Source: Candidatus Kuenenia stuttgartensis (lineage in GTDB: Bacteria; Planctomycetota; Brocadiia; Brocadiales; Brocadiaceae). From it: DNA of 32,000 nt. Under the pieces are notes generated by a model that was given only the letters and a program-made list of their open reading frames with translations, made no database searches and had not been told where the DNA came from. The DNA lies in NCBI RefSeq assembly GCF_900232105.1, contig NZ_LT934425.1:2220001-2252000 (forward strand), written 5' to 3'. Shown piece after piece: positions 4,859 through 20,884 of this stretch. The position numbers and the translations under genes are program-made. Every line of letters begins with the position of its first letter. Position 1 is the stretch's first letter.

Positions 4859-4859
4859 G

Positions 4860-5623: not shown

Positions 5624-5638
5624 TTTCTTCCCTCCTTC

Positions 5639-5887
5639 CTAAAAATATTTGGTTATTACTGTAACAACTATCCAGTCGTTATTTTCTTTTACGGCAATTG
5701 CTTCAATCTGTTTTGTTGCATACTGCATCTCACGCCAAATACCGTCAAAATGAAAGTTTCTTCTGAAACCTGTCCTGCCAAATTTTGCCAGAAAAGTTTC
5801 GCCTCTTTCAACAGTTGCGACAACCTCATCTTCTGTTGCTCCACGCGCAGTCATTCGCTCTCTTGCATGCGGATGAAGTTTTATCAC
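5639..5887 (-). CDS. DUF4258 family protein (putative toxin)
   Basis: MIKLHPHARERMTARGATEDEVVATVERGE...VVTVITKYF fits the DUF4258 pattern. It lies 15 nt upstream of its DUF2283 partner. Confidence 0.65.
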   Translation of the reverse strand: MIKLHPHARERMTARGATEDEVVATVERGETFLAKFGRTGFRRNFHFDGIWREMQYATKQIEAIAVKENNDWIVVTVITKYF

Positions 5888-5948
5888 TGTTCATTCTCCT
5901 TTTTCCCAGATTCTTATTTACGTAATTATACGACATTTTCTTTCCAAT

Positions 5949-6078
5949 GCGGGTTCAGGTTTGCAACTCAATGCTATTAAGTTAAGAATTATTTGGTTAA
6001 AACAACCCCCTAAATCCCCCTTTTCTAAGGGGGACTTGAGGAATTCCCCCTTAATAAATGGGGTTAGGGGGTTGTTTT
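5949..6078. repeat. Half copy of hairpin family D (gcgggttcaggtttgcaac) followed by G/C-run palindromic repeat family E, copy 1
   Basis: Outer inverted repeat aaaacaaccccctaa (5999-6013) / ttagggggttgtttt (6064-6078). Inner hairpin tccccctttt-c-taaggggga. Related copies at 14327-14389 and 19826-19888. Confidence 0.8.
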
Positions 6079-6383
6079 GCCAGCATTTATTGTGTATTCA
6101 AAAAGTCGTTGCCGAAGGCAGCCTGATTTAAATGTTTTTAAAGTACAACCTTGCCTTGATTCTTTCTAAAGAAATTGGTGGTTCAAAGATTTTTATGGGA
6201 TCAAAAGCTATGGCGAACCAGTTTGTATCTTTAGTTGCAGGGCATTGATAGGGTGGTTTTGAAAATTGCATTATGCCAAATACATTTTTGCCTGTAATTG
6301 AAATATGAAGGCCGGACCCTGAACTCTCTCTTGATCCACCCTACCGCAAAACCTGCTTAAATAAAATGAAAATTCCTATACTA

Positions 6384-7412
6384 TCAAGCTATAGCTTCGT
6401 CTATAGCGTCTTTTGCTTTGATAATTGCCTGCGCAAGCCGAGGAAGTGTTTTTTCTTTATCTGCATGTACAGAAGCCTTTGATGAAGCATTAATTTCACC
6501 AATTAACATATATGCTTTACTTATTTTTATGTCTTTATTGCTGATTACATACTTATATTGATTCCAAGAGGTGTCTGAAAGATAAATAAAATAATCATTC
6601 TCTAAATCTTTAGTTAATCTTGTTACTTTAATGTTTGGGGAATGCGCTGGATAAGCAGCTTCTATAAGCAAACGGTTAAGTCTTTTTATGAAATATTTCT
6701 CTAATTCGTTTAATTCGGCGGCTGATTTTTTTCTGTAGTCATTCGTATGGTTAACTAATCCTTCTGTTTCTTCTGAGAGCTTAAACGCAGGTATTCTTTT
6801 TTTAAAAATATCATCATAGAGCATAGGTTTACACAAAAGTTTGTTTAGCTCTTTATCAACTACTACTATCTCATCAATTCTATTTGCTTTTAAATCTTTA
6901 TTAATTTCTTTACAGAGATTTTCTAGACTTACGTTTTTAAATTCATCGTCGTTATGAAAGTCAAAATTGATAGCATTATCAATGCCTTTTTCTGATAAAT
7001 TTTTTGTTAGTTTTCGTAAATCGTTTTCTAATAATTCTTCAAAAATATTTTTATATTTTTCGGTTAAATAGTTTTTATTATTCTCTAATTCTTTTTTTAT
7101 CGTTTTTCTCCTTTTTCTATCAGTACGGAAGGACGTAAGCCAAGAACCAGCTAATGCGAGAATAGCTCCAACAAACATATTGATTAAAGAAAGTATAAAA
7201 TCAAACACCCTCTTCTTATTACGTTCGTAACAAAGTACTACTTTTTTTGCCTCTTTCCTGAAGATATTTTCGTTATTTTTATCTTTTTCGATAGAGACGT
7301 TATTGTTGCTTATTAAAGAGGTGGTACTTTCATGAGCGAATAAATTTAAAGCGATACTTATTAAGATGATGAATACTAATATGATATTTTTAGAAATGCC
7401 AAAGATTTTCAT
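6384..7412 (-). CDS. Hypothetical membrane protein with two predicted TM helices and a Lys/Glu-rich, probably coiled-coil, body
   Basis: 342 aa. Hydrophobic stretches IILVFIILISIALNLF and FDFILSLINMFVGAILALAGSWL. Very AT-rich like the neighbouring pAgo and SIR2 genes. No family recognised. Confidence 0.6.
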   Translation of the reverse strand: MKIFGISKNIILVFIILISIALNLFAHESTTSLISNNNVSIEKDKNNENIFRKEAKKVVLCYERNKKRVFDFILSLINMFVGAILALAGSWLTSFRTDRKRRKTIKKELENNKNYLTEKYKNIFEELLENDLRKLTKNLSEKGIDNAINFDFHNDDEFKNVSLENLCKEINKDLKANRIDEIVVVDKELNKLLCKPMLYDDIFKKRIPAFKLSEETEGLVNHTNDYRKKSAAELNELEKYFIKRLNRLLIEAAYPAHSPNIKVTRLTKDLENDYFIYLSDTSWNQYKYVISNKDIKISKAYMLIGEINASSKASVHADKEKTLPRLAQAIIKAKDAIDEAIA

Positions 7413-7595
7413 TTCGCTTACATGTCCTATTAAAAAAACCTTCCTTTACGCCTTGCAATAGGATACTTGTAACAAAAGTTGTAAAATTTGCAAGTTTTTT
7501 AAAGTTGTGGACAGAGGGTCGGAGGGTCAGTACTATTGTTCAGAATTTAAATATGAAGGAGACCCCATGCCTAAGCGCTGAGGCATCATAGTCAA

Positions 7596-7672
7596 GGGAT
7601 AATCAGGGGACACTTCCCATATTTCTTGCTCGATCTGGTGGAAAATATGGGAAGTGTCCCCTGATTATTCCC
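7596..7672. repeat. Hairpin repeat family B, copy 3 (extended stem gggataatcaggggacacttccca...tgggaagtgtcccctgattattccc)
   Basis: Longest and most symmetrical copy. It directly abuts repeat A3. Confidence 0.85.
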
Positions 7673-7674
7673 GG

Positions 7675-7793
7675 CTAAAATTAGGCATGATGTCGCTTGA
7701 ATTCAGGTCTGGCAATGATTTTTGTAAAAGAGTCGCAGACCATATTTATTCTAGACCAGCATTGTAAATGTCAATAGATAAGGTGACCCCATC
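7675..7793. repeat. Dispersed repeat family A, full-length copy
   Basis: Aligns end to end with 4249-4360. It contains both the gtaaat and gtcaatagataagg variants seen separately in copies A2 and A1. Confidence 0.85.
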
Positions 7794-7829
7794 AACTATC
7801 TCAAAGGTCCGACGCTGCTGGCTGCGTTA

Positions 7830-9092
7830 TCAGAACGGTTCTTCGTAATCTTTCATTTCTTTATCGTATTTATCAATGAAACTGAGCAACAACTCACCCT
7901 TATTAGAAAAATATTTCTCAATAAAGATAGAAGTTTCTAAGGGAACGAAGTCAATATTCTGAGCTGTAATGCCAGTATAATTATATTCTGGCAGTTCAGA
8001 AAAAAAGGAGTCCTTTTGGATATTTTTTATATATACCTCTAAATCCTTCGGATTTGTACCTTTAGGATATTTTATTTTGAAAAAATCGTTTTCATCAAAA
8101 TCAATTATTTCACTATTATAAATTCTTTTTGGACCAAACTTGGGATTAACGATGATAAGTCTGTTAAAACCTTTTGACGCGTAAAATAGCAGATTATTAA
8201 TATATGGATCAAAAAAACTATAACCTATAACAAATATATATTTTTTAATTCTTAGCAATTCATTAAATTTTTTCATAAGGCTAAAAAAAGGTTCAACCGA
8301 AATGGTTTTAGATCCTTGTCCAAAAATCACATATGGATTATGAAAGGGTTCAATATACTCTTTTTCTTCTTCAGGAAACTTTGATTCTTCATATATTTCA
8401 CCAGATTCAACTCTGGCCCAGTCAATAGAACCATGAAGTTTATATAAATTTATCCTTCCAAACTCGTCTAATTTATCTTCATCATCAATACCTATCCATT
8501 TACCGTTATAAAAACCCCTCCAGGGAATTTCATGATGAGCGCCAAAATACTTCTCAATTACTAAGTCATTATTTAAAGTACAAACGTCTAATCGGAAACT
8601 CTGCTCTGAATAGCCTTGAAAGAATGCCCGTATTGGGGCAAGGTAGCCGAATTTATCTTCATCAGATTCCAACCAATGATTTTTCAAAAGGGATTTCAAT
8701 TTCAATTCCAATTCTTCAAAAAGATTTTTTCTGTCCTGTTTTTTATAAGCAGTCTCCAGTTCCACCAATTTATCTGCCCAATTACCTGTAATCGGATAGG
8801 GCAAAAAAAGTTCTCTATTTTTAATCCTTCTAATGAGGAGAACCAATTCTTCAATATTTGGGTTAAATTCTATTTCTCCGCCAGTTTTTATTGATCGCCA
8901 CTCGGCATGGTATGCCATACAGGATATTAAAAACTGTAAGGCTTCTTTTTCGGTTGGAGTAAAACTATCATCATCCGAAAGAATCTTTTTCTTTAAATCG
9001 CTGAACATTTCACCTGATGTTAAACATCCTGTTCCAAAGGAGAAACCAGCTCCCAAAAAGAATAGCGTCTTTTTTATAAGTTCTACTTCCAT
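7830..9092 (-). CDS. SIR2-like (SIR2_2/ThsA-type) putative NADase effector
   Basis: 420 aa. FLGAGFSF (encoded about 9037-9060), a TLNNDLVIE TxNxD-like motif and LYKLHGS (8428-8448) are the three signature motifs of defence-type SIR2 domains. The start lies 1 nt after the pAgo stop. Confidence 0.8.
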   Translation of the reverse strand: MEVELIKKTLFFLGAGFSFGTGCLTSGEMFSDLKKKILSDDDSFTPTEKEALQFLISCMAYHAEWRSIKTGGEIEFNPNIEELVLLIRRIKNRELFLPYPITGNWADKLVELETAYKKQDRKNLFEELELKLKSLLKNHWLESDEDKFGYLAPIRAFFQGYSEQSFRLDVCTLNNDLVIEKYFGAHHEIPWRGFYNGKWIGIDDEDKLDEFGRINLYKLHGSIDWARVESGEIYEESKFPEEEKEYIEPFHNPYVIFGQGSKTISVEPFFSLMKKFNELLRIKKYIFVIGYSFFDPYINNLLFYASKGFNRLIIVNPKFGPKRIYNSEIIDFDENDFFKIKYPKGTNPKDLEVYIKNIQKDSFFSELPEYNYTGITAQNIDFVPLETSIFIEKYFSNKGELLLSFIDKYDKEMKDYEEPF

Positions 9093-9093
9093 A

Positions 9094-11112
9094 TTAAATA
9101 AACCAAGGAGTTTTTTGCGAAATCTTGTTTTCTGAGATTTCTCCGTTAAAATGCAAAGAAAAATCTGCTATCATTTTAGAATATTTGGTTGTTACAGGTT
9201 GACTTGTTTGCATCAGTCCCTTCCAATTTAATCGTGAAAATTCATATACCTGCGACAATATTTCTCGATGTGAAAAACCACCTACATCTGCATGGAATAT
9301 TTTCACTTTAATGGGCAACTCATCTTTTACTTTACGAACTGGCTCTTTTTCATATCTATTATTATTGAAAAGCAAATATTCGTCTTTACCAATTTTTACA
9401 TAAGTTCCACTTTCAGGCATCCCCATATCATATTCGGTATCAAAACATATATCTGACTTGCTTTTGGTATCATTGACTTCAGTAAGCGCAAAAGGTATAT
9501 CTAAATTTAATTTGTTGTAAATTACCTGCTCAAAATTTTTTATCTCATCTTTTCTTGGTGGTTTGTAATAATGAATAGTTAATCTGTCAGGACTACCAAT
9601 AGACTTTGAATAGTCATCTATTGCGATCTTCAAATGAGATATTAAATCTTCTCCTGCTCTCTCCTCTGAGAAACCGTATATCCTTCCCAAGCGCCCTTCA
9701 TTGTCGAAAAATACAGCGCTGCCTATCCATTTCTGGTCTTGTAATTTTTTGTAATTATATCCAATCACTAAATCATTATATTTTTTTGTGTTTAGTTTCC
9801 ATGGGATTCCGCCTAATTTTGCCAATATAGCAATTGCTATGTTGGGCAAGCAATAATTAAAATTTCCACTACGAACAGTTTTATTTGCAATAAACTGAGA
9901 GGTAATTCCTTTATCAAGTAAGAGCTTTTTAATTTCATAATAAGTTTTTTCCTCTTCTTCGTCACTTTCGTATTTGCTAAATGGCCCTATAATTACTGCC
10001 GCATAGTTATAATAGTCATTATCGGGAAATTGGGCGGCAAGAAATTCCTGTAACTTTGTGGATAATTCTCCAGTGCTTGAATAGTATAGGCTTTTTTCCT
10101 TGTCCAATACTACAGGAATACCAACATATGTTAGCAATCCTGGAAATTGTTTTAACCCGTTTCTTAAATACTGATATACTTTATTGGCATCATCCCTTTC
10201 ATTGTAAATAAAAAGGATTTTTATATCGTTAGCATTATCAATCTTTTTATACGGTCCATACTCCCGCATTCCAATTACTGCATTAACAGTTTTATTTTCA
10301 CCGCCAAAAACCATTAAATTATCTTTTAATATTATTCTTTGCCTGTCTTTATCTAAAACGGTTTTAAAACCAGTTTTATCAATATTAAAAAAAACAGATT
10401 CAAAATCCTTTAGTCCCGATTTAAGAAAATCAAGAATGTTTTTATACTCTGTTTTATAGCTGCAAGGAATGACTCTATTCGCTCCTTCTATTCCTGACCG
10501 CATTTGTTTATCAGCGATAACTTTAAATGAATCTCCTGATAGAATTTGTTCATATTTACAGATTAATTTATTCCCAATGTTAACTACTTTCCGAATACCA
10601 TCAATTTGAAAAATTTCTTTTCTACTTATTAATGTAAACTCACTTCCAACACTAATGGATAGCTCTTCATTAAAAGATTTATAAACTAAATCATACCTAA
10701 TATATATTTCCCAGTCTGTTTTAAAATCTTCTTTACGTTTATAAACGGAGAGGTCAAAAGCAGTAGGATTTAGATCAACATAAAAACCTTTATCTAAAAA
10801 GTAATTAGTTAACTCCTGTTTAATAATTAATCTCTTTAAAGATTTAATATCAAAATTATCAGATGAAATGAAATAAGAATTATTATCCCTATCCAGAGAA
10901 AATTCGATTTCAACTGGGTCTTCATCCTTAATATTGTTTTTTTTAAGCCACTCATTAAAATTATTTTTTGCTTCATCATTTTTGATTTTGTTTCTTAACC
11001 ATTGTGATTCTTTAGCAGTGATGACAAAACCTTCTTTATTTTTAATGTTTACAAACCATTGTTTGTCTAAATGGAACCGCAAATTTGTTCTATTTAACAA
11101 CAAAGTACTCAT
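9094..11112 (-). CDS. Prokaryotic Argonaute (MID-PIWI), catalytically inactive, with a roughly 290-aa N-terminal region and no obvious PAZ
   Basis: 672 aa. PIWI hallmark AILAKLGGIPWKL (about 9799-9823). MID 5'-end pocket pattern YYEIKK...GITSQFI..NK (Y-K-Q-K type). C-terminal ...PVTTKYSKMIADF...TPWFI. DEDX positions read GYNY (not GxDV) and IHYYK (not RDG). GAGGGAGG SD lies 6 nt upstream. Confidence 0.85.
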   Translation of the reverse strand: MSTLLLNRTNLRFHLDKQWFVNIKNKEGFVITAKESQWLRNKIKNDEAKNNFNEWLKKNNIKDEDPVEIEFSLDRDNNSYFISSDNFDIKSLKRLIIKQELTNYFLDKGFYVDLNPTAFDLSVYKRKEDFKTDWEIYIRYDLVYKSFNEELSISVGSEFTLISRKEIFQIDGIRKVVNIGNKLICKYEQILSGDSFKVIADKQMRSGIEGANRVIPCSYKTEYKNILDFLKSGLKDFESVFFNIDKTGFKTVLDKDRQRIILKDNLMVFGGENKTVNAVIGMREYGPYKKIDNANDIKILFIYNERDDANKVYQYLRNGLKQFPGLLTYVGIPVVLDKEKSLYYSSTGELSTKLQEFLAAQFPDNDYYNYAAVIIGPFSKYESDEEEEKTYYEIKKLLLDKGITSQFIANKTVRSGNFNYCLPNIAIAILAKLGGIPWKLNTKKYNDLVIGYNYKKLQDQKWIGSAVFFDNEGRLGRIYGFSEERAGEDLISHLKIAIDDYSKSIGSPDRLTIHYYKPPRKDEIKNFEQVIYNKLNLDIPFALTEVNDTKSKSDICFDTEYDMGMPESGTYVKIGKDEYLLFNNNRYEKEPVRKVKDELPIKVKIFHADVGGFSHREILSQVYEFSRLNWKGLMQTSQPVTTKYSKMIADFSLHFNGEISENKISQKTPWFI

Positions 11113-14100
11113 TTATTTACCTCCCTCAATTATTGTAATTTCTACCCCGGTCAAACCGTAGAGTTTATAAACAAGCTGGTCAATCTGCCTTTCCAGCGGT
11201 GACGTGTCGGCATTAGGGTCTTTTTGCTTTTCGGTGAGGATTTGGTCAACAAGAGAATCTAATTGTTTCTTATCTGTATTTTTAAGGATTGGTATGGGAA
11301 TTTGTTCGAAATATTGAGGCTTGACTTCGATGAATCCACCGCTTCTTACAACACATATCGTTTTCAAAAAATACCAAACAACTTTTGAGTTAAGAATCCC
11401 TAATAGCCATTTCGCATCGGTTGGCAAGAAAACTGCCGGCGCATTAAGGTATGTACCGCTAATATCATAGGCAAATTTGTTGGAGTTTTGAAGGTTGGGG
11501 AATATTATTTTTGGTTTTGCAAACAGGTCATAATAAGCACAGTTTCTAAGTTCCCACCAGAACTCCCCCTTGTCATATCGCTTTCTTGCTGCCTCAGCAA
11601 AGGGCTTAAGATGGTTCATGATTGATGGAAAAGCAGCCCTCATTGCTTCAAATGCCTTTGCTTCGTCCTGTCCGTTAAAATACGTACGTGTTGACTTGTT
11701 TTCGAAGACGATCATCTTTTTATCAATCGCTGGGGTCTGCCATTTCTTGATATCTTTGCCCTCGAAAACAGGTTTGAGGTGCTTGCTGTTTCCCAAGTCT
11801 TTTTCTGTTATAAATGCCTCATTTAATGCTGTTTTAATACCATAATAGCACTTTCCAAATACGTCTTTCAACTTCTTATGAATGGATATTTTCTCTGATA
11901 ACTCCACTTGTCCCTGATGATCAAAACTCCAGGAAAACTGCTTCAGTGCTGAACTTGGTAGAAGCGTATAAGAAATGGCTCTACCCGAATTAAAATTGCC
12001 AAATAGATCTTCGGTTACTTTGAGATATGCAAATGCTTCCTGATGCTTTGATTTTATCGCAAGAAGGATTATTGGGTAGGTTGTGGTACCCTCAAAAACA
12101 CCAACAGATTTAAAGTCAACATACTTGTTTAATGAAAAATTATCCGAGACATATTTACGTAGAGTTTTTCCGGCAGTTGTTTTATCAAACGCATTATTGA
12201 TAAAACAAAAAACTCCCTGATTTGTCAGAATATTAAAAGACCTCTCATAGAAATAATAAAAAATATCTCCGCTTGGGGCAAATACGGTGTAGGTAGCCTT
12301 AAGATAAGTTTTCAAATCTCCCAAATCTTCAGCCCGAATATACGGCGGATTCCCAATCACCACATCAAACCCCTCCTTAATCCCAAACATCCACTCTGTG
12401 TCAAAGAAAGTAGCCGAGTTGTTCTGGTCGTAAGGATCCCAGGCGGCTATTTTTTTGGCAGTGGCAGGTTGGAAGTCATGGTTTTCTATTAGCAATTCAG
12501 CCAGTTCGTCACGCAATTGTTTGTCTTTTATACGGCAGGTTTCCTTACGCCTGGGCGTCCGGGCTTCAAAGTAATCGTGCCGCACCTTTTTCAGTTCGGC
12601 CTTTTTCTTTTCTATATCAGGGTTGGTAAACAAATGCGCCTTTTCTTTTTCCAGCCCTATCAATGTATTGGCAGCCACAAATTTCGTTTCCAGGTTTGGC
12701 AGGGGACGTACGCCTAAGTTGTCTCTCCTGTGATTTACCTTTTGATCAACAATCAGGGAAATAAAGAACCGCAGCTTGGCTATCTGTACGGCGATGGACT
12801 GTATATCTATACCATAAATGCAGTTCTCTATGAGGTAGAGCTTGCGTCCATAGTCAAATTCGTTGTTATCAAAGGCTTCTTCAATATCTCTGCGCGTGTT
12901 GTGCAGGTCTTCAATTACTTTTTCCCTGACACGGGTGTCTGAAATGCCTTCGGCATCTTCAATCAGTTTATCTACCTTATCTAACTGCCGTTGTTTCCAT
13001 CGGGCGTTGTTGGGATCGAGTTTATGCAGTATATGAACCATCCTGTGCAGTATGCCCATTGGGAAAGCCCCGGAGCCGCAGGCAGGGTCTAAAATCTTAC
13101 AGGTATCAATCGCCTTAACAAGAACCCCGGCTTCCTCAGTATTGAAGGGATTGGGGTTTTCAGAATAACTGAGCAGGTCGCGTAATCTTTCTTCGTTTTT
13201 GTCGGTGTTGTTAGATTCTTCGCTCCGCTCAGAATGACAAAAGGGGACAGAATGACCGGCTGAGACGGAACTACGGGATGGGACATCATGACAAGATGAG
13301 AGAGATTGCTTGAGGTAGGCCAGCAATGATTCGTCCACCATGTAGTTTACAATCTCGCGCGGAGTGTAAAACGAACCGGTCTGTTTGCGGGCAGTGGTTT
13401 GGGTTTCGGGATTGTAGTTGGCTAAAAGGTTTTCAAATACCTTACCAAGCAATTCGGGGTCGAGGGCTATTTCTTCTTCTATGGGTGTATTTTCGGCAAC
13501 AGTAAATTTATAGCTGTTCAGAATGTCAATGATCCCGTAAACCTTTTCTTTATTTTTTTTGGATGAACTGTAGATCCTGCTTAAATCGACGTCCACACCT
13601 TTTTCGTTAAAAAACAGCTCGTCCGGCACTTCCAGCACATTATCTTCCCGGTCGCTGAAGCTGTCAATACGGATGCGCTTTCGTTTGCCGTCATCGTCCA
13701 GTTCCTTATCCAGGCATTCAAACAAACCGCCGTTGAGAAAAGGGATCGGAGAAAAGTATTGCTCCAGTGTTTCTTTTGGTTTTACAAATTCATTCTCGTA
13801 ACGGAATACGTTGTGGATGAAATAATGTCCATCGCGTCCGCTGTCATTTTTAGTCCTGAACCCGCGCTTGCCCATTTCGGTGTTTAGGGTAGCAAAGAAC
13901 AGGTTTTGCAGGATGGCTTTATAGTAAGCGCTTTTCTTATTGTCAGTATATTTGAGCAGTTTCTTCAACTGCTTCTCATCAAATAATGCATCCGGAACCA
14001 GTCCTTTTTCTTTCAGGAACCAAACAAACATCAAACGGGTGATGAGACGGATAACACTGGTTGCATTGCGTACATCTTTGTCCTTTCCTGCATCATCAGG

Positions 14101-14925
14101 AAACACCACTTTTTGTGTGGCCCAAAAATACCAGTTGGCAAGTTCCCTGAAGAAACGTTTGTTGAGTTCGGAGGTGTCTAATGCCTTTTGCCAGGCATTA
14201 TGCAGTTCCACAAAATTGGTAAAGCCGTGTTTGTTTTTTAGTTCATTGAATGAGAGGTCGAAGAGGATTTCTATGTGGGCGCGGTGGGTGACTGCGCCAT
14301 CGCCGCCGGAAACAATTTCCTTGCCCAAAACAACCCCCTTACCCCCTTTTTTAAGGGGGATTTCTACATCACCCCCGCCAGCGGGGGATATGCGGATGTT
14401 TTTGATGAGGGTTACTTTCTGAAGTACATCCTTGCTTTCGTCCCGTTTGTGCAGCCTGCGGTTGATGACAGAAAGTGTGAGCGAAAAACCGTGTTTGAAC
14501 AAAATCATAACTGGCATGGGAAACAGGCGATTGACTTCACGGGTGATGTGTGAAAGTTCGGTTCTGCTGTAGTGTTCTTTCGCCAGTTCTATGGCAAAGA
14601 ACAAATACGTTTCAATGACAGTGCGGTCAACCTGTTTGGTATCGAACAGTGACAATTGCCTTGTTACCTCTTCCTTAGAAAGCTGGAAGAGCAGGTCAAC
14701 ATATTTCCAGTCTTTTACCAATGCCTTGTCTTCATTAAACATGGATTGACTATCTATGAAGGAATCTCTGAATGCAATATAGGCAGGCTTTTCCAAAGGC
14801 GCCCGGCGTTCGGTAATATAGCCAAGGGTTTGAAAGAGGTTTAATGCATTTTCGGAAAGGTTGCCAGCGCCAAATTGCTGGATGGCTTCCTTTATTTTTT
14901 GCCTGAGGTCTTTCGCCATAATCAT
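11113..14925 (-). CDS. Large Eco57I-family gamma-class N6-adenine DNA methyltransferase with TaqI-like C-terminal target-recognition domain (PglX / DrmMI / type IIG-like)
   Basis: 1270 aa. Motif I ILDPACGSGAFP. Motif IV VVIGNPPYI (12337-12360). C-terminal GEFWWELRNCAYY...GGFIEVKPQYFEQIPIP is typical of TaqI_C specificity domains. The first codons overlap a REP copy, so the start could be the ATG at 14919 (MAKDL...). Confidence 0.85.
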   Translation of the reverse strand: MIMAKDLRQKIKEAIQQFGAGNLSENALNLFQTLGYITERRAPLEKPAYIAFRDSFIDSQSMFNEDKALVKDWKYVDLLFQLSKEEVTRQLSLFDTKQVDRTVIETYLFFAIELAKEHYSRTELSHITREVNRLFPMPVMILFKHGFSLTLSVINRRLHKRDESKDVLQKVTLIKNIRISPAGGGDVEIPLKKGGKGVVLGKEIVSGGDGAVTHRAHIEILFDLSFNELKNKHGFTNFVELHNAWQKALDTSELNKRFFRELANWYFWATQKVVFPDDAGKDKDVRNATSVIRLITRLMFVWFLKEKGLVPDALFDEKQLKKLLKYTDNKKSAYYKAILQNLFFATLNTEMGKRGFRTKNDSGRDGHYFIHNVFRYENEFVKPKETLEQYFSPIPFLNGGLFECLDKELDDDGKRKRIRIDSFSDREDNVLEVPDELFFNEKGVDVDLSRIYSSSKKNKEKVYGIIDILNSYKFTVAENTPIEEEIALDPELLGKVFENLLANYNPETQTTARKQTGSFYTPREIVNYMVDESLLAYLKQSLSSCHDVPSRSSVSAGHSVPFCHSERSEESNNTDKNEERLRDLLSYSENPNPFNTEEAGVLVKAIDTCKILDPACGSGAFPMGILHRMVHILHKLDPNNARWKQRQLDKVDKLIEDAEGISDTRVREKVIEDLHNTRRDIEEAFDNNEFDYGRKLYLIENCIYGIDIQSIAVQIAKLRFFISLIVDQKVNHRRDNLGVRPLPNLETKFVAANTLIGLEKEKAHLFTNPDIEKKKAELKKVRHDYFEARTPRRKETCRIKDKQLRDELAELLIENHDFQPATAKKIAAWDPYDQNNSATFFDTEWMFGIKEGFDVVIGNPPYIRAEDLGDLKTYLKATYTVFAPSGDIFYYFYERSFNILTNQGVFCFINNAFDKTTAGKTLRKYVSDNFSLNKYVDFKSVGVFEGTTTYPIILLAIKSKHQEAFAYLKVTEDLFGNFNSGRAISYTLLPSSALKQFSWSFDHQGQVELSEKISIHKKLKDVFGKCYYGIKTALNEAFITEKDLGNSKHLKPVFEGKDIKKWQTPAIDKKMIVFENKSTRTYFNGQDEAKAFEAMRAAFPSIMNHLKPFAEAARKRYDKGEFWWELRNCAYYDLFAKPKIIFPNLQNSNKFAYDISGTYLNAPAVFLPTDAKWLLGILNSKVVWYFLKTICVVRSGGFIEVKPQYFEQIPIPILKNTDKKQLDSLVDQILTEKQKDPNADTSPLERQIDQLVYKLYGLTGVEITIIEGGK
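13195..13300. repeat. Probable repeat-derived in-frame insertion inside the MTase gene (peptide SCHDVPSRSSVSAGHSVPFCHSERSEES)
   Basis: Low-complexity segment with a cagaatgac direct duplication. Another frame of the same strand reads ...VILSPFVILSGAKNL... (track ORF 13089-13289). I recognise these peptide signatures as typical of a widespread short repeat. Boundaries are approximate. Confidence 0.5.
14290..14395. repeat. Family E repeat inserted in frame inside the MTase gene (peptide SPAGGGDVEIPLKKGGKGVVLGKEIVSGGDGAV)
   Basis: aaaacaacccccttaccccctttttaagggggatttc (from 14327) aligns with intergenic copy E1 aaaacaaccccctaaatcccccttttctaagggggacttg (from 5999). It is followed by the hairpin acccccgccagcggggga. 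Outer boundaries are approximate. Confidence 0.7.
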
Positions 14926-15829
14926 GCCACCCCTTCGGGCTTTCGTTTATTATAATATTTTAGTTTTTTGAAAAATTCCACAAATGAGATGATTACCTTT
15001 CCCTGTAGTGGCAATGCGTTTCACATGCGCTTCGCTTTCTCTTCGAGTTATGAATTGCCGCTATATATATTGATACAAAGGTATTTTGCAGTTTTGACGT
15101 TTTCACAAAACTAGCATGTTACCGTTTTTTTTGATTCAGTTTACAATCTTTACAATCCCGAAGGGATGTAATTATTATAGATTTAATGAAAGAAAACCAC
15201 CAAACCCCGAAGGGGTGTAATTATTATAGCAATTATTTATTTTATTATTCCAACCAATCAAACAAATATTTTTCATGGAATTCCACATTGAATCTTTTCA
15301 AAAAATCCGAATATTCTTCCTTAAATGTCTTCCGCTTATGATGTTCTTCCTGGTTCAAAATATAGTTGTAAACTGTTTCGATCTGCTATGTGCATAGGAG
15401 AAGGCTCCGTATCCTTCTGCCATGAAATTTACTTCTAATCATTACCGATCCATATTAATGAAATTCGTCGTATTGTTTTTCACATCCCTGACCAAATCAG
15501 AAATAGCCATGGACGGTTGTAACCCTATAAATATATGCACATGGTTGGCAACGCCGTTAACGATTATAGACTTTTGTCCCTTATTTTTGATGATACCAGC
15601 CATATATTTGAACACCTCATCTCTCCAGGGTTTTTGCAGCAGATTCGACCTGCCGTTTACGGCAAAGATTGCCTGTATGTATATTTGTGTGAATGTTCCA
15701 GACATGATTTTTTATTCTATAATCATTTCACCCCTTTGGGGTTGTTGTTTGTGGTTATTCTTTGGCTATAATCATACCAGCCCTTCGGGCTTTTTGTCAT
15801 ATTGTACCAGTTTAGTTTTTTGAAAAACA
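14917..15829. mobile_element. REP/RayT cluster: decayed Y1 transposase gene bracketed by inverted REPs (family G) and inverted family C repeats
   Basis: REP G copies: cataatcatgccaccccttcgggc (14917-14940, rc), cccgaagggatgtaattattatag (15157-15180), cccgaaggggtgtaattattatag (15206-15229), ctataatcataccagcccttcgggc (15771-15795, rc). C5 (15100-15124, forward) and C6 (15805-15828, rc) lie outside them. Confidence 0.75.
15245..15705 (-). pseudogene. IS200-like / REP-associated tyrosine transposase (RayT, Y1_Tnp) pseudogene
   Basis: Frame 1 gives MSGTFTQIYIQAIFAVNGR...VANHVHIFIGLQPSMAISDLVRDVKNNTTNFI (HxH motif), then a stop at 15442. The rest is readable only after frame shifts: ...AEGYGAFSYAHS then QIETVYNYILNQEEHHKRKTFKEEYSDFLKRFNVEFHEKYLFDWLE* ending at 15245. 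There are at least two frame disruptions. Confidence 0.8.
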
Positions 15830-16054
15830 TGATTTTTTCAGCTATTCCGCAGCCCTGACAGGGTTTCAAAACTCTGTCAGGGTTAAATCAGCGAGTAGGA
15901 CGCACCCTGCGATGTTACAATTTTTGTAACATTTTAAGTAAAGAATCCACCAGCGAAACAGATAGCTTTGGGTTTATCCCTATAAGGGGATGAGTTTATC
16001 CGGTGGGACTTGCATATCGATACTATGCAATTGGTCAGTCACTGGCTGACGATT

Positions 16055-16354
16055 TTACGGTAGCATCAATTGGGCAGTCAGTGACCGCCTGATTTGCGGA
16101 TAGGTTTGGTAAAACTGCCTGAATAGCTTTAAGTTACGGCAAGATAATCCTTTATTATCAAAACGTTCCGAAAGATTTTGCAATAGGTTTTCGCCATAGG
16201 TAGCCCGGTCTTCCCCTTTTTGCTCATACTCAACAATGTAAAAACCAATTAGCCAGTTACGGATTGTAATATGGCGGTTAATTGCCGTTACAGCCGATTG
16301 TTGCAAGGCAGTATGGGTCTGCTGTATGGTATTAACTAAGAATTCAAATTTCAT
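16055..16354 (-). pseudogene. N-terminal fragment of a DUF1016/YhcG-type (PD-(D/E)XK nuclease family) protein
   Basis: 99 aa. IRNWLIGFYIVEYEQKGEDRATYGENLLQNLSERF...CRNLKLFRQFYQTYPQI matches the YhcG N-terminal domain. Full-length members are about 3.5x longer as I recall, and the nuclease core is absent. The start lies 1 nt after the helicase stop. Confidence 0.65.
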
Positions 16355-16355
16355 A

Positions 16356-19300
16356 TTACTTTATGACTAACCACGTTACTAACTCAAAATTATCCAAATC
16401 ATGCACCTGTTTCGACTGTGGTATCAATAATGCACCACGGTCAGTGGTGAGTTTTTGATTGCTGCGTTTTCTGAATACATGACTTATTTCATATACGGCT
16501 TTTTTTAGCAATTCAGTATACTTACCCATCTCCTCGCCATTCCTGGTTTCTGTATTGAATAATTCACAAAGCTTCTCATAAGGCGCTTTGCGCCCCTGAC
16601 ACATCAGGCGGTAGATTTCCAGTATCTGTTTGGCGTTGGTGTAATTGAAACGAACCGTTCCGTCTTCGCGAATGTATGCCAGAAAGTAAGGTTGCAATGG
16701 GTTTACTTCTTCGTTGCCGCCGGTGTCGCCTTTTTGCTTCAGGCAATATACCACACCCGGTTTGATAATATTCTTTTCGGCTGGAGTAAAGCGGCTTGCA
16801 TCTGTATTTTGCGCATGAATGCCAGATGGTGAAGGCACGACGGCATATAAACCAAAGGGCGCATCTTCCAGCTTCTTACTATTATTTTCCAAAAATGTGT
16901 GCAATTCGATGCGGAAATCATCCAGGGTAAAATCGGTTAACGAAATGCTTTCGCTCATTTCTTCGAGGTCGAGCACTTCTTTTTGCAGTTTTTTCAGTTG
17001 CCGGTTACGGTACTTCAAATCATCTGTGATAAGCTCTTCTATTTGTTCGGTATTCAGTATGTTGTCTTCGCCGGTGGCGGTAACGTCAACCAATGCCATC
17101 CGGGACTCCACGCGTTCTTTCAGGTTGATGTAATTATCAAGGTCTTTGGTAGGCCAGAAGTTTATCAGTTGGATTTTCTTATTCCTGCTTCCCAGCCGGT
17201 CAATACGGCCAAAACGCTGAATGATGCGAACGGGATTCCAGTGAATATCGTAGTTAACCAAAAAATCACAATCCTGTAGGTTCTGCCCTTCGCTGATGCA
17301 GTCAGTGGCGATCAGTATATCTATCTCCACTTCCTGCGGCATGGATTTCATTAATTCCCTGTTTTTAGAAACGGGTGAGAAGTTGGCGAGGATGTTTGAA
17401 AAATCATTTTTGCCGAATGTGGTTTGGTTGGTATTCCCCGCTACCAATGCAATGTTCAATTTCAAATCTTTTTTCACCCATTCTTTCAGACAATTATATA
17501 GGTATTGAGCGGTATCGGCAAAGGCGGTAAAAACGATTACCTTCCTGTTGTTGCTGTTCAGTGGTTGATTAATTTTTTGTTCGATTAGTTTTTGAAGGTC
17601 TTTCAGTTTTGCGTCACGTTCCGGGGTCACCGCAACTGCCGTATTATACAACTCATTGAGGGCTTCTTTGTCTTTTGTTAAATCGTTCAACCAATCTTCC
17701 AGACGTAAATCAGCTAAATCAAATTTCAATTTTTTCCCTACCTGCCATTGTTCAAGGTCGTCGGTATTTTCTTCTAATTCGTCTTCATCCGGTTCCAATG
17801 TTTCCAAAACCTCTTCCTGCGATTTAGCGTTTGATTTAAGGAATTCATTGATTCTGCTTTCAAGTTTTTCGATTTTCTGAATTGTTCTGTCCATTGAAAT
17901 CTCAAATGATTCAATACAGCTTTCCAGGCGTTTCAGGAAGTTTACCTTCATCATTCCGATAAGGAAGTGCTCACGGTCGCTTTGTTTGAAGGCAAGGATT
18001 TCCGTTCCGGCTAACGCTTCATATTTCTGCTTCTTTTCATCCTTCACATAGGCAGAAGGATTAAATACCGAAAGCTTGTATTGCAGGATTTTTTTGTTCA
18101 GCGCATCGTAGGTAAAAAAGCGGTCTTTTATATCAATATTCGGGTAGAGGGAATGAGGCTTTAACCGTTCTGGGAATTGCCCTATGGCGTCAATATTGTA
18201 AAAACCCTTTATGTGCTTTCTGCTCCGGGCAATAGTGAGTTCGTCCAGCAATTTGAAGAAGGATGAATCAAGGCGTTCCATTAATTGCTTAACTGTTCTG
18301 TCGGGATTCTTTTTATGGTCAGCCCAAAATGTAAACTGTGTCTGGGCATTCCTGAGTGTAAGGGCAATATCCTTGATTTGTGTACTCTCAAAGAGGGCAT
18401 CATTTTCGCCTTCCGTAATGAGTGAGATTTGATTTCTTAAATCGCGAAGGTTATTGTTGACCGGCGTAGCAGAAAGCATGAGTACCTTTGTTTTCAATCC
18501 CGACTTGATGATTTTTTCCATCAGCCATTTGGCACGGTTCATTTTGATGGCGCCGTCATCTTTGGCCTTTTCCATCGGATTGCCCCGAAAATTATGTGAC
18601 TCATCGATAACTACAAGGTCATAGGCGCCCCAATTGAAGTTTTCAAGGTCTATGCCGTTTGCATCGGATTTACCGGTTATTCTGCCGAGGTCGGTATGGT
18701 ACAGAATGGTATAGTTAAACCGGTCTTTGGTAAACGGATTAAGTGCGTTGTTTTGGCTCGCCTGGTAAATCGTCCAGTTAGCCGAGAGTTTTTTTGGGCA
18801 GAGCACAAGAACGCGGTAATTCAATAATTCGAAATAACGGATTACCGCCAACGCCTCAAAAGTCTTGCCCAAACCGACGCTATCCGCGATGATGCAGCCG
18901 TTGTGTTTCAGGATTTTATTGATGGCCCCTTTTACGCCGTCTTTCTGAAAGTCGTACAGCTTATGCCATATTTCGCTTTCAAAAAATCCGGTGCGTTCAT
19001 TCAGCAAACCGCCGCGTTTTTGTTCGTCAATATAGTTCCCAAAGAGGTGGAACAGGGTTTTGAAGTAAATAAACTCCGGTTCATTTTCAATATAAAATTG
19101 TTCAAGGTCTTTAAGCACTTCGGCTTTAACATCTTCGACGAGTCCTGTTGTGTCGTTCCACAACTCATTAAACCAGTTTGTCAGGTCATCCAAATCCCTT
19201 CTGTCCTGGATAACCATATTCAATTCGATGTTCGGGCTTCCGCCCATTCCGAGTCCATGAACAGTGAAATTGGAACTCCCCATGACCGCTTCTTTAACCC

Positions 19301-19694
19301 CGTTTGGATTTTCCATCAAATAAAGCTTGCCGTGCAGGAAGTTTGGTTTCACCATGGATTTGACGTGAACCTTTTCTTTAATCCAATCCGAGCATTCTTT
19401 GGAAAGGGATTTTTGTTTTAAGAGGCTTTCAATTGGGATTACCAGTGAATCGTCCTCGATTTTGAAGTCGCGCCTGTTGGTTTTTGCCGGGTCCAGTGAT
19501 TTGATAAAGGATGGCTCACCAAAGAGGAACCTTAGGTGATCTGTTCGGTCGAGTTGGTTTTTTAATTGTTTGTATGCGTAAATGGTGAAGTATGCCGAGA
19601 CTATTGATAAACCGGCGCCTTGCTTTACATTATCAATAAGGAATTGGCCGACTGTTCCATTTTTATGATTGTCACGGATTGAAGTATTGTTCAT
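16356..19694 (-). CDS. PLD-nuclease-domain / SNF2-family helicase fusion protein
   Basis: N-terminus: FLHGKLYLM (19314-19340) plus GSSNFT form an HxK PLD motif. Middle: DSVGLGKT (Walker A), VVIDESHNFRG (DExH). C-terminus: QRFGRIDRLG (helicase motif VI). The track ORF starts at a TTG (19733), so the ATG at 19694 (MNNTSIRD...) is preferred. Confidence 0.85.
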   Translation of the reverse strand: MNNTSIRDNHKNGTVGQFLIDNVKQGAGLSIVSAYFTIYAYKQLKNQLDRTDHLRFLFGEPSFIKSLDPAKTNRRDFKIEDDSLVIPIESLLKQKSLSKECSDWIKEKVHVKSMVKPNFLHGKLYLMENPNGVKEAVMGSSNFTVHGLGMGGSPNIELNMVIQDRRDLDDLTNWFNELWNDTTGLVEDVKAEVLKDLEQFYIENEPEFIYFKTLFHLFGNYIDEQKRGGLLNERTGFFESEIWHKLYDFQKDGVKGAINKILKHNGCIIADSVGLGKTFEALAVIRYFELLNYRVLVLCPKKLSANWTIYQASQNNALNPFTKDRFNYTILYHTDLGRITGKSDANGIDLENFNWGAYDLVVIDESHNFRGNPMEKAKDDGAIKMNRAKWLMEKIIKSGLKTKVLMLSATPVNNNLRDLRNQISLITEGENDALFESTQIKDIALTLRNAQTQFTFWADHKKNPDRTVKQLMERLDSSFFKLLDELTIARSRKHIKGFYNIDAIGQFPERLKPHSLYPNIDIKDRFFTYDALNKKILQYKLSVFNPSAYVKDEKKQKYEALAGTEILAFKQSDREHFLIGMMKVNFLKRLESCIESFEISMDRTIQKIEKLESRINEFLKSNAKSQEEVLETLEPDEDELEENTDDLEQWQVGKKLKFDLADLRLEDWLNDLTKDKEALNELYNTAVAVTPERDAKLKDLQKLIEQKINQPLNSNNRKVIVFTAFADTAQYLYNCLKEWVKKDLKLNIALVAGNTNQTTFGKNDFSNILANFSPVSKNRELMKSMPQEVEIDILIATDCISEGQNLQDCDFLVNYDIHWNPVRIIQRFGRIDRLGSRNKKIQLINFWPTKDLDNYINLKERVESRMALVDVTATGEDNILNTEQIEELITDDLKYRNRQLKKLQKEVLDLEEMSESISLTDFTLDDFRIELHTFLENNSKKLEDAPFGLYAVVPSPSGIHAQNTDASRFTPAEKNIIKPGVVYCLKQKGDTGGNEEVNPLQPYFLAYIREDGTVRFNYTNAKQILEIYRLMCQGRKAPYEKLCELFNTETRNGEEMGKYTELLKKAVYEISHVFRKRSNQKLTTDRGALLIPQSKQVHDLDNFELVTWLVIK

Positions 19695-19728
19695 AGGTTC
19701 ATGTATTATCTTCTTTCCTGGAAAAATG

Positions 19729-19810
19729 TTCAATATTCAATTCTCAATATTCAATTCTCAAATTGTTGCTCATTTGCCTCTATTCTTTTACATTGAATAT
19801 TGAATATTAA
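19729..19810. repeat. Low-complexity tandem/inverted repeat (tcaatattcaattc x2 ... attgaatattgaatatt) over the 5' end of the helicase gene
   Basis: ttcaatattcaattctcaatattcaattctcaaattg (19729-19765) and cattgaatattgaatattaa (19791-19810) are mutually inverted. Confidence 0.8.
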
Positions 19811-19825
19811 TTTTCAGTAACAGTT

Positions 19826-19888
19826 CACCCACCCCTTAATCCCCTCCCAAGAGGGGACTTCTTGTATTCCCCTCTTGAGAGGGGTGTG
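19826..19888. repeat. G/C-run palindromic repeat family E, copy 2
   Basis: cacccaccccttaatcccctcccaagaggggacttcttgtattcccctcttgagaggggtgtg has two tandem hairpins of the cccctc..gagggg type. Confidence 0.75.
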
Positions 19889-19982
19889 CACTTTTCAAAT
19901 ACTGGGACAATCCATAAGGGGAGCATTCCCGATTTTTTGTAAGTTTTCGTAACTATTCAGCGCAAGCATCACACGATTCCAG

Positions 19983-20154
19983 GCGGGTTCAGGTTTGCAA
20001 CCTGAACCTATGAGTTTATGCGTATAATGGGGTCATGTACTTACTGCGGTAAAAACCCTGTTTGGCATATGGGATTTATTTGTCATTTTTCTGCTAATAG
20101 AAGGCAGGATTGGAAGCATAAAACGTTTGGTTCAGGTTACAAACCTGAACCCGC
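19983..20154. repeat. Hairpin family D pair in inverted orientation bracketing about 120 bp
   Basis: gcgggttcaggtttgcaacctgaacc (19983-20008) and ggttcaggttacaaacctgaacccgc (20129-20154). A half copy lies at 5949-5967. Confidence 0.8.
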
Positions 20155-20161
20155 ACAGGTG

Positions 20162-20190
20162 TTTTTTCAAAAATCTAAAGTGTTACGAAA
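20162..20190 (+). repeat. Dispersed repeat family C, copy 7
   Basis: tttttcaaaaatctaaagtgttacgaaa differs at 1 of 28 positions from copy C1 (3358-3385), in the same orientation. Confidence 0.85.
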
Positions 20191-20828
20191 ATTTCAACCC
20201 TGACGTTGCTGTCAGGTGGAAACTCCTGGCAGCACGAGAAAAATATTGGTTCATACCACACTTTTGGCTCAAATCCTTTATCGTTTAATATCACCGCAGC
20301 CTCTCCGCTTTCACCGATAACGAACAATCCGTTTCTGTATGCATATTTATCAGAATCCTCCTCCATTACTATCCCGCCTACTGCGCCAACTACCTTCCTT
20401 CCGATATATTCCGGGAAAAAGGTCTTGAATTTCCCGAGTCTCTCTATATGTTCTTTTACATCCTCTATCTTTAACGTGCTTTTCGCCTCTATCAACACGG
20501 CATATTCACCATTTATCGCAAGGATATCCACTTCCATTTCGTCACCATTTCTGTGTGTCTTTACCCTCTGGAATACCTTGTCTACTTCTATTCCCCGTTC
20601 TTTAAACAGCCTTTCGGTTGCAGGCGCTATGAGTCCCTCTACAAACCTGCTCCATTTTCCAGTGAGTGCATACACTGCCTTGTTGGTATTTTCTGATGTT
20701 TTGCGGGTTTCTTCAACCGACTTGCTCAATTTGTCAATTTCCTTGTCTGTATCCTTAAACCGCCCATCAGTCTCTTTAAACAACTTCCATATTTCCTGAA
20801 TACTTTTTTCCATTTCCTGAGTAGTCAT
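20175..20828 (-). CDS. DUF3782-like protein with a PD-(D/E)XK-type core (coiled-coil N-terminus)
   Basis: MTTQEMEKSIQEIWKLFKETD...; EVDILAINGEYAVLIEAKSTL gives a D...E.K nuclease-like motif. ATG at 20828 follows GGAG. The last ~15 codons run into repeat C7 and the adjacent hairpin. Confidence 0.55.
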   Translation of the reverse strand: MTTQEMEKSIQEIWKLFKETDGRFKDTDKEIDKLSKSVEETRKTSENTNKAVYALTGKWSRFVEGLIAPATERLFKERGIEVDKVFQRVKTHRNGDEMEVDILAINGEYAVLIEAKSTLKIEDVKEHIERLGKFKTFFPEYIGRKVVGAVGGIVMEEDSDKYAYRNGLFVIGESGEAAVILNDKGFEPKVWYEPIFFSCCQEFPPDSNVRVEIFVTL

Positions 20829-20884
20829 TTTTCCGATCTCCTCATAGGACTTGCTGATAACGATTCGCAATATTATACATTCAA

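Follow-up and report, generated by a model that had tools for sequence, protein, structure and literature searches.

A putative two-gene restriction-modification-like module in Candidatus Kuenenia stuttgartensis: a PLD-SNF2 protein paired with a methyltransferase that carries a DUF4391-like domain

We analysed a stretch of 32,000 nucleotides (nt) of the Candidatus Kuenenia stuttgartensis genome (contig NZ_LT934425.1, positions 2,220,001 to 2,252,000), hereafter the window, in which a row of minus-strand genes extends from about 6.4 to 20.9 kb with housekeeping genes on both sides. Two genes of this row are the subject of this work: one encodes a protein in which a phospholipase D (PLD) domain of the HKD type is fused to an SNF2 ATPase (PLD-SNF2; 16356-19733, minus strand; Pfam, PADLOC), the predicted motor-nuclease subunit, and the other encodes an N6-adenine DNA methyltransferase (MTase; 11113-14925, minus strand; Pfam, PADLOC), predicted to serve as the subunit for modification and target recognition. 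The genes do not adjoin each other: 1.4 kb of gene debris lies between them. In the window both subunits retain all their catalytic motifs, which the family conserves as well. Judging from sequence comparison, we consider it fairly probable that the pair constitutes a self-standing two-subunit, ATP-dependent system of the restriction-modification (RM) kind.

Translated from a TTG codon, PLD-SNF2 comprises 1125 amino acids (aa), while translation from the ATG at 19694 (Met14) gives 1112 aa; the NCBI Candidatus Kuenenia stuttgartensis protein, 100% identical and 1112 aa long, starts at Met14. An initial annotation, made from the letters of the stretch alone, had placed PLD and SNF2 in one polypeptide, and Pfam confirmed this arrangement with matches to PLDc_2 (aa 102-192, 6e-9), SNF2-rel_dom (aa 263-442) and Helicase_C (aa 709-848). 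The PADLOC model C3a139 (“HKD+Snf2”) matches over the full length (2.4e-133), aa 40-1123 being aligned with positions 25-946 of the 948-position profile; the label of this model presumably stems from a list of genes found close to type III CRISPR loci. The PLD nuclease domain (aa 36-200; 19134-19628, minus strand; Pfam and translation) contains one HKD motif, whose residues H134, K136 and GSSNFT 152-157 (LHGKLYL...GSSNFT, encoded at 19263-19334) are intact. Both the PLDc_2 score (36.2 bits, cut-off 27) and the RE_NgoFVII score (28.9 bits, cut-off 23.8) lie above their thresholds. The domain is a member of the HKD superfamily with the HxK...GSxN catalytic motif intact, and nuclease activity is predicted for it. 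The SNF2 ATPase core (aa 255-860; 17154-18971, minus strand) consists of an N lobe (aa 255-445), a helical insert of about 260 aa and a Helicase_C lobe (aa 709-860), and carries the motifs GLGKT (aa 287), DESH (aa 377), SAT and QRFGRIDR (aa 839). With 35.8 bits for SNF2-rel_dom against a cut-off of 24.9, it qualifies as an SNF2 family ATPase. An alignment of 72 full-length relatives shows both the HKD and the SNF2 motifs to be conserved, and the H and K of the HKD motif are kept in 69 of 71 full-length homologues. The C-terminal region (aa 861-1125; 16359-17153, minus strand) is conserved in the family and has no Pfam match. When the single sequence was searched against the PDB with phmmer, only the SNF2/RapA lobes were matched (Snf2, RapA, CHD1L), and Foldseek on the AlphaFold2 (AF2) model of the protein retrieved only generic superfamily 2 (SF2) helicases (MDA5, Dicer, Hef, RapA and ZorD) with TM scores below 0.2.

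The initial annotation had also described a large N6-adenine MTase with its own TaqI-like specificity domain, and this description held: the protein has 1270 aa, with Pfam matches to Eco57I (aa 701-944, 1e-33), N6_Mtase and TaqI_C (aa 1052-1211, 1.2e-13). The catalytic region, of the gamma class (12016-13464, minus strand), contains motif I (DPACGSGAF, aa 613) and motif IV (NPPY, aa 859). The TaqI_C match defines the target recognition domain (TRD; 11293-11772, minus strand), and the target-recognition end is the part of the MTase that diverges most between loci (31-60% identity). N-terminal to the catalytic region lies a helical spacer (aa 241-480; 13486-14205, minus strand) common to Type IIG/MmeI-like enzymes, recognised by PADLOC PDLC03601 on aa 241-356, by a weak MmeI_hel match on a homologue and by the helical character of the AF2 model. 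A profile of the MTase family matched CamA, M.BseCI, PglX, BrxX, TaqI and BpuSI (3s1s, 2e-15) in the PDB, in each case only from profile position 750 onward, and phmmer with the single MTase sequence matched the TRD of M.BseCI only.

The first 240 aa of the MTase (14206-14925, minus strand) form a DUF4391-like domain for which we predict a coupling function. When the family of this N-domain was compared by hhalign with 123 free-standing DUF4391 proteins, an E-value of 3.4e-5 was obtained (probability 72%, about 90-130 columns), while the reversed control gave 0.25. Furthermore, the N-domain and free DUF4391 hold the same genomic position, immediately after a gene of the same SNF2 family. The AF2 model of aa 1-480 is confident (pLDDT, the predicted local distance difference test score, 86.5; pTM, the predicted template-modelling score, 0.82), and Foldseek found no match to it below an E-value of 1e-3 in the PDB and BFVD; a hidden Markov model (HMM) of the N-domain gave zero matches to PDB sequences at E-values up to 10. 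In a profile search of 1.84 billion representative proteins the fused architecture was found among the best 150 matches, a list that does not reach the distant tail where free DUF4391 might appear. The conserved charged residues of the domain are mostly basic (R121, R129, R156, R157, K160, K170, K175, R215); D166, D176 and H217 are conserved as well.

Whether a nuclease is hidden in this domain bears directly on the classification of the locus, since the MTase could then be a complete Type IIG enzyme, and PLD-SNF2 an accessory or an independent neighbour. Several observations speak for such an assignment: the best PADLOC match of the MTase is REase_MTase_IIG (1e-89), the helical spacer resembles that of MmeI-type enzymes, D166, D176 and H217 are conserved in the N-domain, and Milman et al. 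(2023, PMC9881135), who noted the two-gene arrangement once before, in passing, name such MTases Type II RM enzymes homologous to Cj0031. However, the Type IIG models align only from about aa 241 onward. Residues 1-240 match no nuclease family in Pfam, PADLOC, PDB sequences or Foldseek, in agreement with the initial annotation, which had seen no obvious PD-(D/E)XK motif in the MTase N-terminus. Across 94 diverse family members the candidate acidic residues of such a motif (D77, E86 and E112) lack conservation and no PD-(D/E)XK triad is present, and no nuclease fold of the PDB was matched although BpuSI and further Type IIG structures such as DrdV are in the library. The initial annotation had reckoned with the possibility that PADLOC would assign both genes to a system already defined; its Type IIG models match the MTase alone, and because they reach only from about aa 241 onward and include no nuclease domain, a Type IIG call would be an annotation artefact. 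Helical spacer, Eco57I-type domain and TaqI_C TRD are common to the MTase and the Type IIG/IIL enzymes (MmeI, BpuSI, Eco57I and Cj0031-like); like these, the protein combines a gamma-class MTase and a TRD in one chain (Eco57I, N6_Mtase, TaqI_C, NPPY). It differs from them in that their N-terminal PD-(D/E)XK domain is replaced by the DUF4391-like domain and in that a separate PLD-SNF2 gene is conserved beside it. Thus the protein falls outside Type IIG at the nuclease domain, and we regard a complete Type IIG enzyme with a cryptic nuclease as quite improbable.

To follow the two genes beyond the window, one genome per species was scanned, which yielded 80 loci with relatives of PLD-SNF2 (45-77% identity), 71 of them with a full-length SNF2 gene, and pairing in these 80 genome loci was assessed by tblastn and clustering of open reading frames (ORFs). 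An MTase with the same N-terminal 480 aa follows immediately downstream, in the same orientation, in 59 of the 71 full-length loci, that is in 59 of the 63 informative ones. The 12 exceptions comprise eight contig ends, two loci with a sister cassette described below and two loci (L041, L075) with other neighbours. Paired loci occur in Bacteroidota, Planctomycetota, Chloroflexota, Cyanobacteria, Proteobacteria, Verrucomicrobiota and other phyla. The SNF2 family of PLD-SNF2 comprises at least 8000 protein clusters, and the MTase N-domain family about 1400 clusters at 50% identity. Over 1100 aa, the PLD-SNF2 proteins of Bacteroidia, Ignavibacteria, Syntrophus, Desulfobacteria and Kuenenia (Planctomycetota) are 74-90% identical, and identity of this degree between distant phyla therefore points to recent and frequent horizontal transfer under strong constraint. 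A conserved motor-nuclease (74-90%) together with a divergent TRD end (31-60%) is the pattern that would be expected of a restriction subunit combined with a specificity subunit that diversifies. The programmed inversions that Milman et al. (2023, PMC9881135) describe in MTase genes of this two-gene arrangement fit an RM-like mode of evolution. Several other genes recur in the related loci: a full-length DUF1016 gene between the two core genes in 12 of them, a PIN passenger gene in six, an SMC_N/AAA ATPase gene after the MTase in 13, and also SLFN_AlbA_2/HATPase_c_4 proteins. These are optional passengers, and because DUF1016, PIN or SLFN-HATPase genes fill the slot between the core genes in relatives, this slot is a hot spot for them. 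From these comparisons the pair appears to be a self-standing, widely distributed and intact-looking RM-like module, which introduces no new principle.

A second form of the cassette was found chiefly on plasmids and in viral contigs. PLSDB holds 118 records with full-length SNF2 relatives of about 40% identity, including plasmids of Listeria, Enterococcus, Bacillus cereus, Escherichia coli (IncF) and Acinetobacter. In every annotated context the SNF2 gene of this sister cassette is followed by a free DUF4391 gene (220-260 aa), which overlaps the SNF2 stop codon, then by a Type III Mod gene (PADLOC MTase_III, 4e-220) and a Type III Res gene (REase_III with an RE_endonuc domain). The sister SNF2 proteins are 41-48% identical to that of the window, and PADLOC C3a139 recognises the E. 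coli protein (1.7e-121) as well as that of the window; PADLOC has no model for DUF4391. Among the IMG/VR viral contigs with a relative, about 45 of 50 carry the Type III-linked cassette and one the fused-MTase form; in a few of the viral Type III-linked loci the DUF4391 gene was not detected by tblastn. Neither a beta-class Mod nor a Res is encoded in the window, and among the related loci this Type III pair occurs only in the sister cassette. The two forms have in common the SNF2 family, the PADLOC model, the DUF4391 partner and its position, and they differ in that the sister form has lost the HKD motif, keeps DUF4391 as a separate gene, uses a beta-class Type III Mod and possesses a Res helicase-nuclease. 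Joined to the MTase in one form and free in the other, DUF4391 seems always to accompany the SNF2 family of PLD-SNF2. As a side observation, genes for BrxR/WYL-type regulators lie directly upstream of the sister cassette in three loci from E. coli and a metagenomic contig (L087, L088, L095); in L095, UvrD-like and SLFN-HATPase genes are inserted in the cassette and a Zorya-like locus adjoins it.

The state of the HKD motif follows the presence of Res. All 59 genome loci with a fused MTase, and the one such viral locus, retain the H..K and GSS(N) residues, whereas the motif is lost in every Type III-linked locus examined (L078, L079, L081-L084, L086, L090, L093, L095 and the viral set): P, Q, D or N stands in place of H, no K remains and GSSN has degenerated. 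Counted by source, the loss concerns two genome loci, five plasmid loci, four others and about 45 loci on viral contigs. L085 is intermediate, with H and GSSS kept and Res lacking. In precomputed Pfam data, PF13091 is assigned to all 120 window-type matches and to none of the Type III-linked SNF2 proteins. Only where no further nuclease is encoded is the HKD motif retained. Since it is intact where the MTase fusion is the sole partner and lost where Res is present, the PLD domain is probably the nuclease in systems without Res and catalytically dispensable where Res supplies one. The same distribution is hard to explain if the MTase cuts alone, as a Type IIG enzyme would, and free DUF4391 moreover sits in cassettes that already hold the Res nuclease. 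The active PLD of the two-gene form and the dead PLD of the Type III-linked form represent a natural experiment on nuclease swapping.

The fate of the HKD motif also bears on the question of whether the pair cuts DNA at all. Bacteriophage exclusion (BREX) systems and the restriction-modification-associated defence island system (DISARM) pair SNF2-type helicases with Eco57I-like MTases, and to our knowledge no clear cleavage has been shown for either. The locus could act by exclusion in the manner of BREX or DISARM, or as a phase-variable epigenetic methylase with a remodelling ATPase, the PLD domain being structural or directed at a substrate other than DNA. MTases of the same two-gene arrangement do phase-vary, programmed inversions having been described in their genes (Milman et al., PMC9881135), and a catalytically dead PLD domain survives in the Type III-linked clade, from which we conclude that the domain also has a non-catalytic role. 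Yet H134, K136 and GSSN are strictly kept in 60 loci that encode no other nuclease and are lost beside Res, which speaks for selection on catalysis, and the window pair is located in a defence island beside genes for a prokaryotic Argonaute (pAgo) and a SIR2 protein. A non-cutting pair is in our judgement decidedly unlikely. Inverted TRD cassettes as a sign of programmed inversion were looked for near the 3' end of the window MTase gene and none was found; the sole notable inverted repeat in that scan is a mobile repeat at 6012-6079.

The initial annotation had compared the two genes to class 1 DISARM. They share with that system three activities, an SNF2 helicase (DrmD), an Eco57I-like N6-adenine MTase (DrmMI) and a PLD protein (DrmC), and to this extent the comparison stands. 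It differs from the window in that here DrmA and DrmB are absent and PLD is fused to SNF2. The absence of a DrmA- or DrmB-like gene, also claimed at the outset, was upheld: no window ORF has DrmA as its best match, the only DrmA match being the helicase C lobe of PLD-SNF2, and no window ORF of at least 80 aa matches DrmB/DUF1998. PLD-SNF2 reaches 160 bits against NCBIfam DISARM_DrmD (cut-off 610) and 97 bits against DrmD_b (cut-off 950), and the MTase matches PADLOC DrmMI, for which no curated cut-off exists, only weakly and only over aa 849-1228 (3e-19), against 1e-89 for the Type IIG models. The likeness to class 1 DISARM is therefore a loose one, which breaks down at DrmA, at DrmB and in the score against DrmD. 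Among described parts lists, the nearest is that of the Type-2 BREX-related (BR) systems, relatives of Hma, in which an HKD-Swi2/Snf2 helicase and an N6-MTase, both present here, are predicted to act in an RM-like manner (Rakesh and Krishnan, NAR 2026, PMC12839542). These systems are built around a DUF499 AAA+ ATPase and contain a DUF3780 gene in 98% of cases, and DUF4391 is not mentioned in that paper (PMC12839542). In contrast, DUF499 and DUF3780 found no match in the scanned window ORFs and are absent from the related loci, and what the HmaA models match is confined to the helicase C lobe of PLD-SNF2 (2.5e-23).

Could the pair nevertheless be the decayed remnant of one of these larger systems, that is, of a class 1 DISARM which has lost DrmA and DrmB or of a Type-2 BR/Hma system which has lost DUF499 and DUF3780? 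DrmD is indeed the best named helicase match of PLD-SNF2 in both NCBIfam and PADLOC, Type-2 BR uses the same combination of HKD-SNF2 helicase and N6-MTase (PMC12839542), and mobile-element debris is present at the locus. In addition, the B. cereus plasmid pJ2_1 (L081) carries a composite at 4122-17864 in which an AAA ATPase gene, drmA and a DUF1998 gene are followed by the sister cassette, and the same SNF2 match (41.5% identity, 805 bits) recurs in about 15 B. cereus plasmids. This DISARM-like composite fits neither described DISARM class, and drmA with the DUF1998 gene upstream of the B. cereus sister cassette is the sole real link to DISARM that we found. Against decay stands that the two-gene form is the rule, that a tblastn search of the 80 related genome loci and the 50 viral loci yielded no homologue of the B. 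cereus DrmA and DrmB, that no large ATPase is conserved in the related loci, where only optional passengers recur nearby, and that the DrmD and HmaA matches quoted above fall far short of family membership. Because of the pairing in 59 of 63 loci and the lack of B. cereus DrmA/DrmB homologues in any of them, we do not take the pair for a stripped DISARM, and a remnant origin of either kind seems highly improbable.

Between the two core genes of the window lie the remains of other elements. Directly past the SNF2 stop codon is a DUF1016/YhcG stub (16055-16354, minus strand; N-terminal 99 aa; Pfam DUF1016_N 1.7e-16, PADLOC PDC-S02), and no remnant of the C-terminal nuclease domain of DUF1016 is left in the window; the stub is what remains of a passenger gene and stands outside the core. 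It is followed by a decayed element of repetitive extragenic palindromes (REP) and their associated tyrosine transposase (RAYT) at 14909-15830 (minus strand; Pfam Y1_Tnp 3e-14, frame and repeat analysis). This element contains a frameshifted IS200-like Y1 transposase gene at about 15250-15705 and at least five REP hairpins (CTATAATCATnCCAnCCCTTCGGGCTTT) at 14909-43, 15154-80, 15203-29, 15710-44 and 15759-93, with repeat families D1, D2 and I1-I4. One of the hairpins overlaps the MTase ATG at 14925, so that the MTase has had its first codons and its promoter region replaced. In addition, a lineage-specific, hairpin-rich insertion of about 100 nt lies in frame in the MTase N-domain (14290-14391, aa 179-212). 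It is a copy of the intergenic repeat at 6012-6079 (51 nt, 82% complementary) and falls in a loop that is disordered in the AF2 model and in which close relatives have shorter related inserts. A scan of 14700-20300 for promoters and terminators gave no clear difference from shuffled sequence.

In view of this debris the system might be a fossil in this particular genome, broken by the REP/RAYT insertion and by the in-frame repeat in the MTase. The truncated DUF1016 gene and the frameshifted RAYT gene show decay at the locus, and the REP over the start codon and the 100-nt repeat in the N-domain affect the MTase itself. Nonetheless, neither long ORF (1125 and 1270 codons) is interrupted and their motifs are intact, and the loop occupied by the N-domain insert is disordered and variable among close relatives too. 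Since a nuclease that stayed active after loss of its methylase would be toxic, the two genes would be expected to decay together, which is not what is seen. We consider inactivity in this genome unlikely though not negligible. Current expression is uncertain, because the stub and the REP/RAYT element separate the genes and the REP has remodelled the 5' end of the MTase.

For the two-subunit RM-like system that we favour, the following mode of action can be proposed. On host DNA the MTase subunit would methylate a single strand of an asymmetric site, and on incoming DNA it would bind unmethylated sites. Its DUF4391-like domain would dock or activate the PLD-SNF2 subunit. The SNF2 motor would then translocate on double-stranded DNA at the expense of ATP, and cleavage would occur when two PLD-SNF2 subunits meet, for example when converging from two sites. 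A PLD active site is composed of two HKD halves, as in Nuc and BfiI, and PLD-SNF2 has a single motif, so cleavage is predicted to need two molecules of the protein. The PLD active site of SauUSI is likewise built from two HKD halves, according to work cited in PMC12839542. If two PLD domains are needed, cleavage would depend on collision or on two sites, as it does in Type ISP, Type I and Type III enzymes, and the whole might be viewed as a Type ISP or Type I enzyme split in two, with PLD in place of PD-(D/E)XK and SNF2 in place of the HsdR-type motor. The initial annotation had already suggested a two-component scheme; the pairing in 59 of 63 loci and the covariation of HKD with Res strengthen it, while restriction, methylation, the contact between the two proteins and the need for two sites stay inferences.

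The closest functional analogue is Type ISP (LlaGI, LlaBIII), which likewise unites a nuclease, an ATP-driven translocase of double-stranded DNA, a gamma-class N6-adenine MTase and a single TRD. Type ISP enzymes methylate one strand of an asymmetric site and cleave after translocation and collision. The same behaviour would be expected of the window pair. In Type ISP enzymes, however, a single chain carries an Mrr/PD-(D/E)XK nuclease together with a Type I-like RecA motor, whereas the present system is divided over two polypeptides and has PLD as its nuclease, SNF2 as its motor and a predicted coupling domain of the DUF4391 kind. A PLD-family nuclease coupled to an SF2 motor is found in SauUSI and in CglI/NgoAVII. 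These ATP-dependent PLD restriction enzymes cleave after translocating at the expense of ATP (PMC5861437; Tumuluri et al. 2021, as cited in PMC12839542). SauUSI differs in being a modification-dependent single protein without an MTase, and none of these enzymes uses SNF2 or DUF4391.

A number of points weigh against such a system. Pfam DUF4391 (PF14335) scores below its gathering threshold of 29.9 bits, with 16.7-18.9 bits in the window and 24-25 bits in homologues, and the hhalign match of the N-domain to free DUF4391 is modest. D166, D176 and H217 could form an unrecognised active site. The AF2 model of the whole PLD-SNF2 protein, built on a shallow alignment (74-90% identity), is poor (pLDDT 57.5, pTM 0.34, with the C-terminal region below 50) and lends no structural support to dimerisation or docking. 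In loci L041 and L075, whose HKD motif is intact, no MTase lies within 10 kb. The substrate of the PLD domain could be other than DNA, and DrmC, the PLD protein of DISARM, is reportedly dispensable. Finally, the two genes may in this genome have been silenced, or uncoupled from each other, by the REP/RAYT insertion and by the REP that covers the MTase start.

A wider proposal, towards which we lean somewhat less than halfway, is that PLD-SNF2 and DUF4391 together form a portable motor-nuclease-adaptor cassette for unrelated MTase-specificity modules, the fused form being a new class of ATP-dependent restriction enzyme. A Type IIG-like MTase would be its fusion partner in one form, and in the other the cassette would stand free beside Type III Mod and Res. 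A motor of the SNF2 chromatin-remodeller type would deliver a half-site PLD nuclease, cutting would need two converging complexes, and DUF4391 would be a previously unrecognised fold linking the methylation read-out of the MTase to the motor. As regards novelty, “PLD-SNF2” and similar terms led in the searchable literature only to the paper on BREX-related systems (PMC12839542), and DUF4391 is mentioned in only two indexed papers, each time incidentally; REBASE or subscription journals could hold descriptions. Three points had no counterpart in the searchable literature: the DUF4391-like coupling domain, the occurrence of DUF4391 in free and fused form and the gain or loss of HKD according to the presence of Res.

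If true, the two-subunit RM-like system would enlarge the ATP-dependent restriction enzymes by a two-gene system that is widespread and easy to clone, assign a role to DUF4391 and explain nuclease-less “Type IIG” annotations, of which there are thousands. Defence-finding tools would mislabel the locus as a lone Type IIG enzyme and overlook the helicase. MTases of variable specificity with a separate cutter could furthermore serve as programmable reagents. The pairing of an SNF2-PLD protein with an MTase is unsurprising to a specialist; the system is common, mis-annotated and directly testable.

The remaining genes of the row belong to the defence island rather than to the core. The pAgo and SIR2 genes (7830-11112, minus strand) begin one base past the MTase stop codon, with the pAgo gene (672 aa, Piwi domain, PADLOC pAgo 6e-112) preceding the gene for the Argonaute-associated SIR2 (420 aa, 5e-87). 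The GC content drops sharply, from 0.41-0.45 to about 0.30, where the pAgo gene begins. Co-transcription of pAgo-SIR2 with the MTase is possible. As none of the 80 related loci contains pAgo-SIR2, it is a separately acquired neighbour, and it was rejected as an extra component. Likewise rejected was an ORF of 231 aa upstream of PLD-SNF2 (20175-20870, minus strand), also absent from all 80 related loci, which has weak PD-(D/E)XK-like matches (Hjc, 0.0025; CARF_PDDEXK, 1e-5; RmuC C-terminus). The pAgo-SIR2 pair, the DUF4391-like N-domain, the Type III-linked sister form and the mobile-element debris are all additions to the initial annotation. At the far end of the row, an ORF of 342 aa (6384-7412, minus strand) has no Pfam, PADLOC or NCBIfam match, and upstream of it, just past the SIR2 gene, lies a terminator-like inverted repeat of 29 nt (97% complementary, 7596-7671). 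At the edge of the island are two small genes, one encoding an HTH_37 protein (4860-5186, plus strand) and one a DUF4258 protein (5639-5887, minus strand), which are possibly toxin-antitoxin-like, and a tRNA-Arg(CCG) gene is located at 25959-26032 (minus strand).

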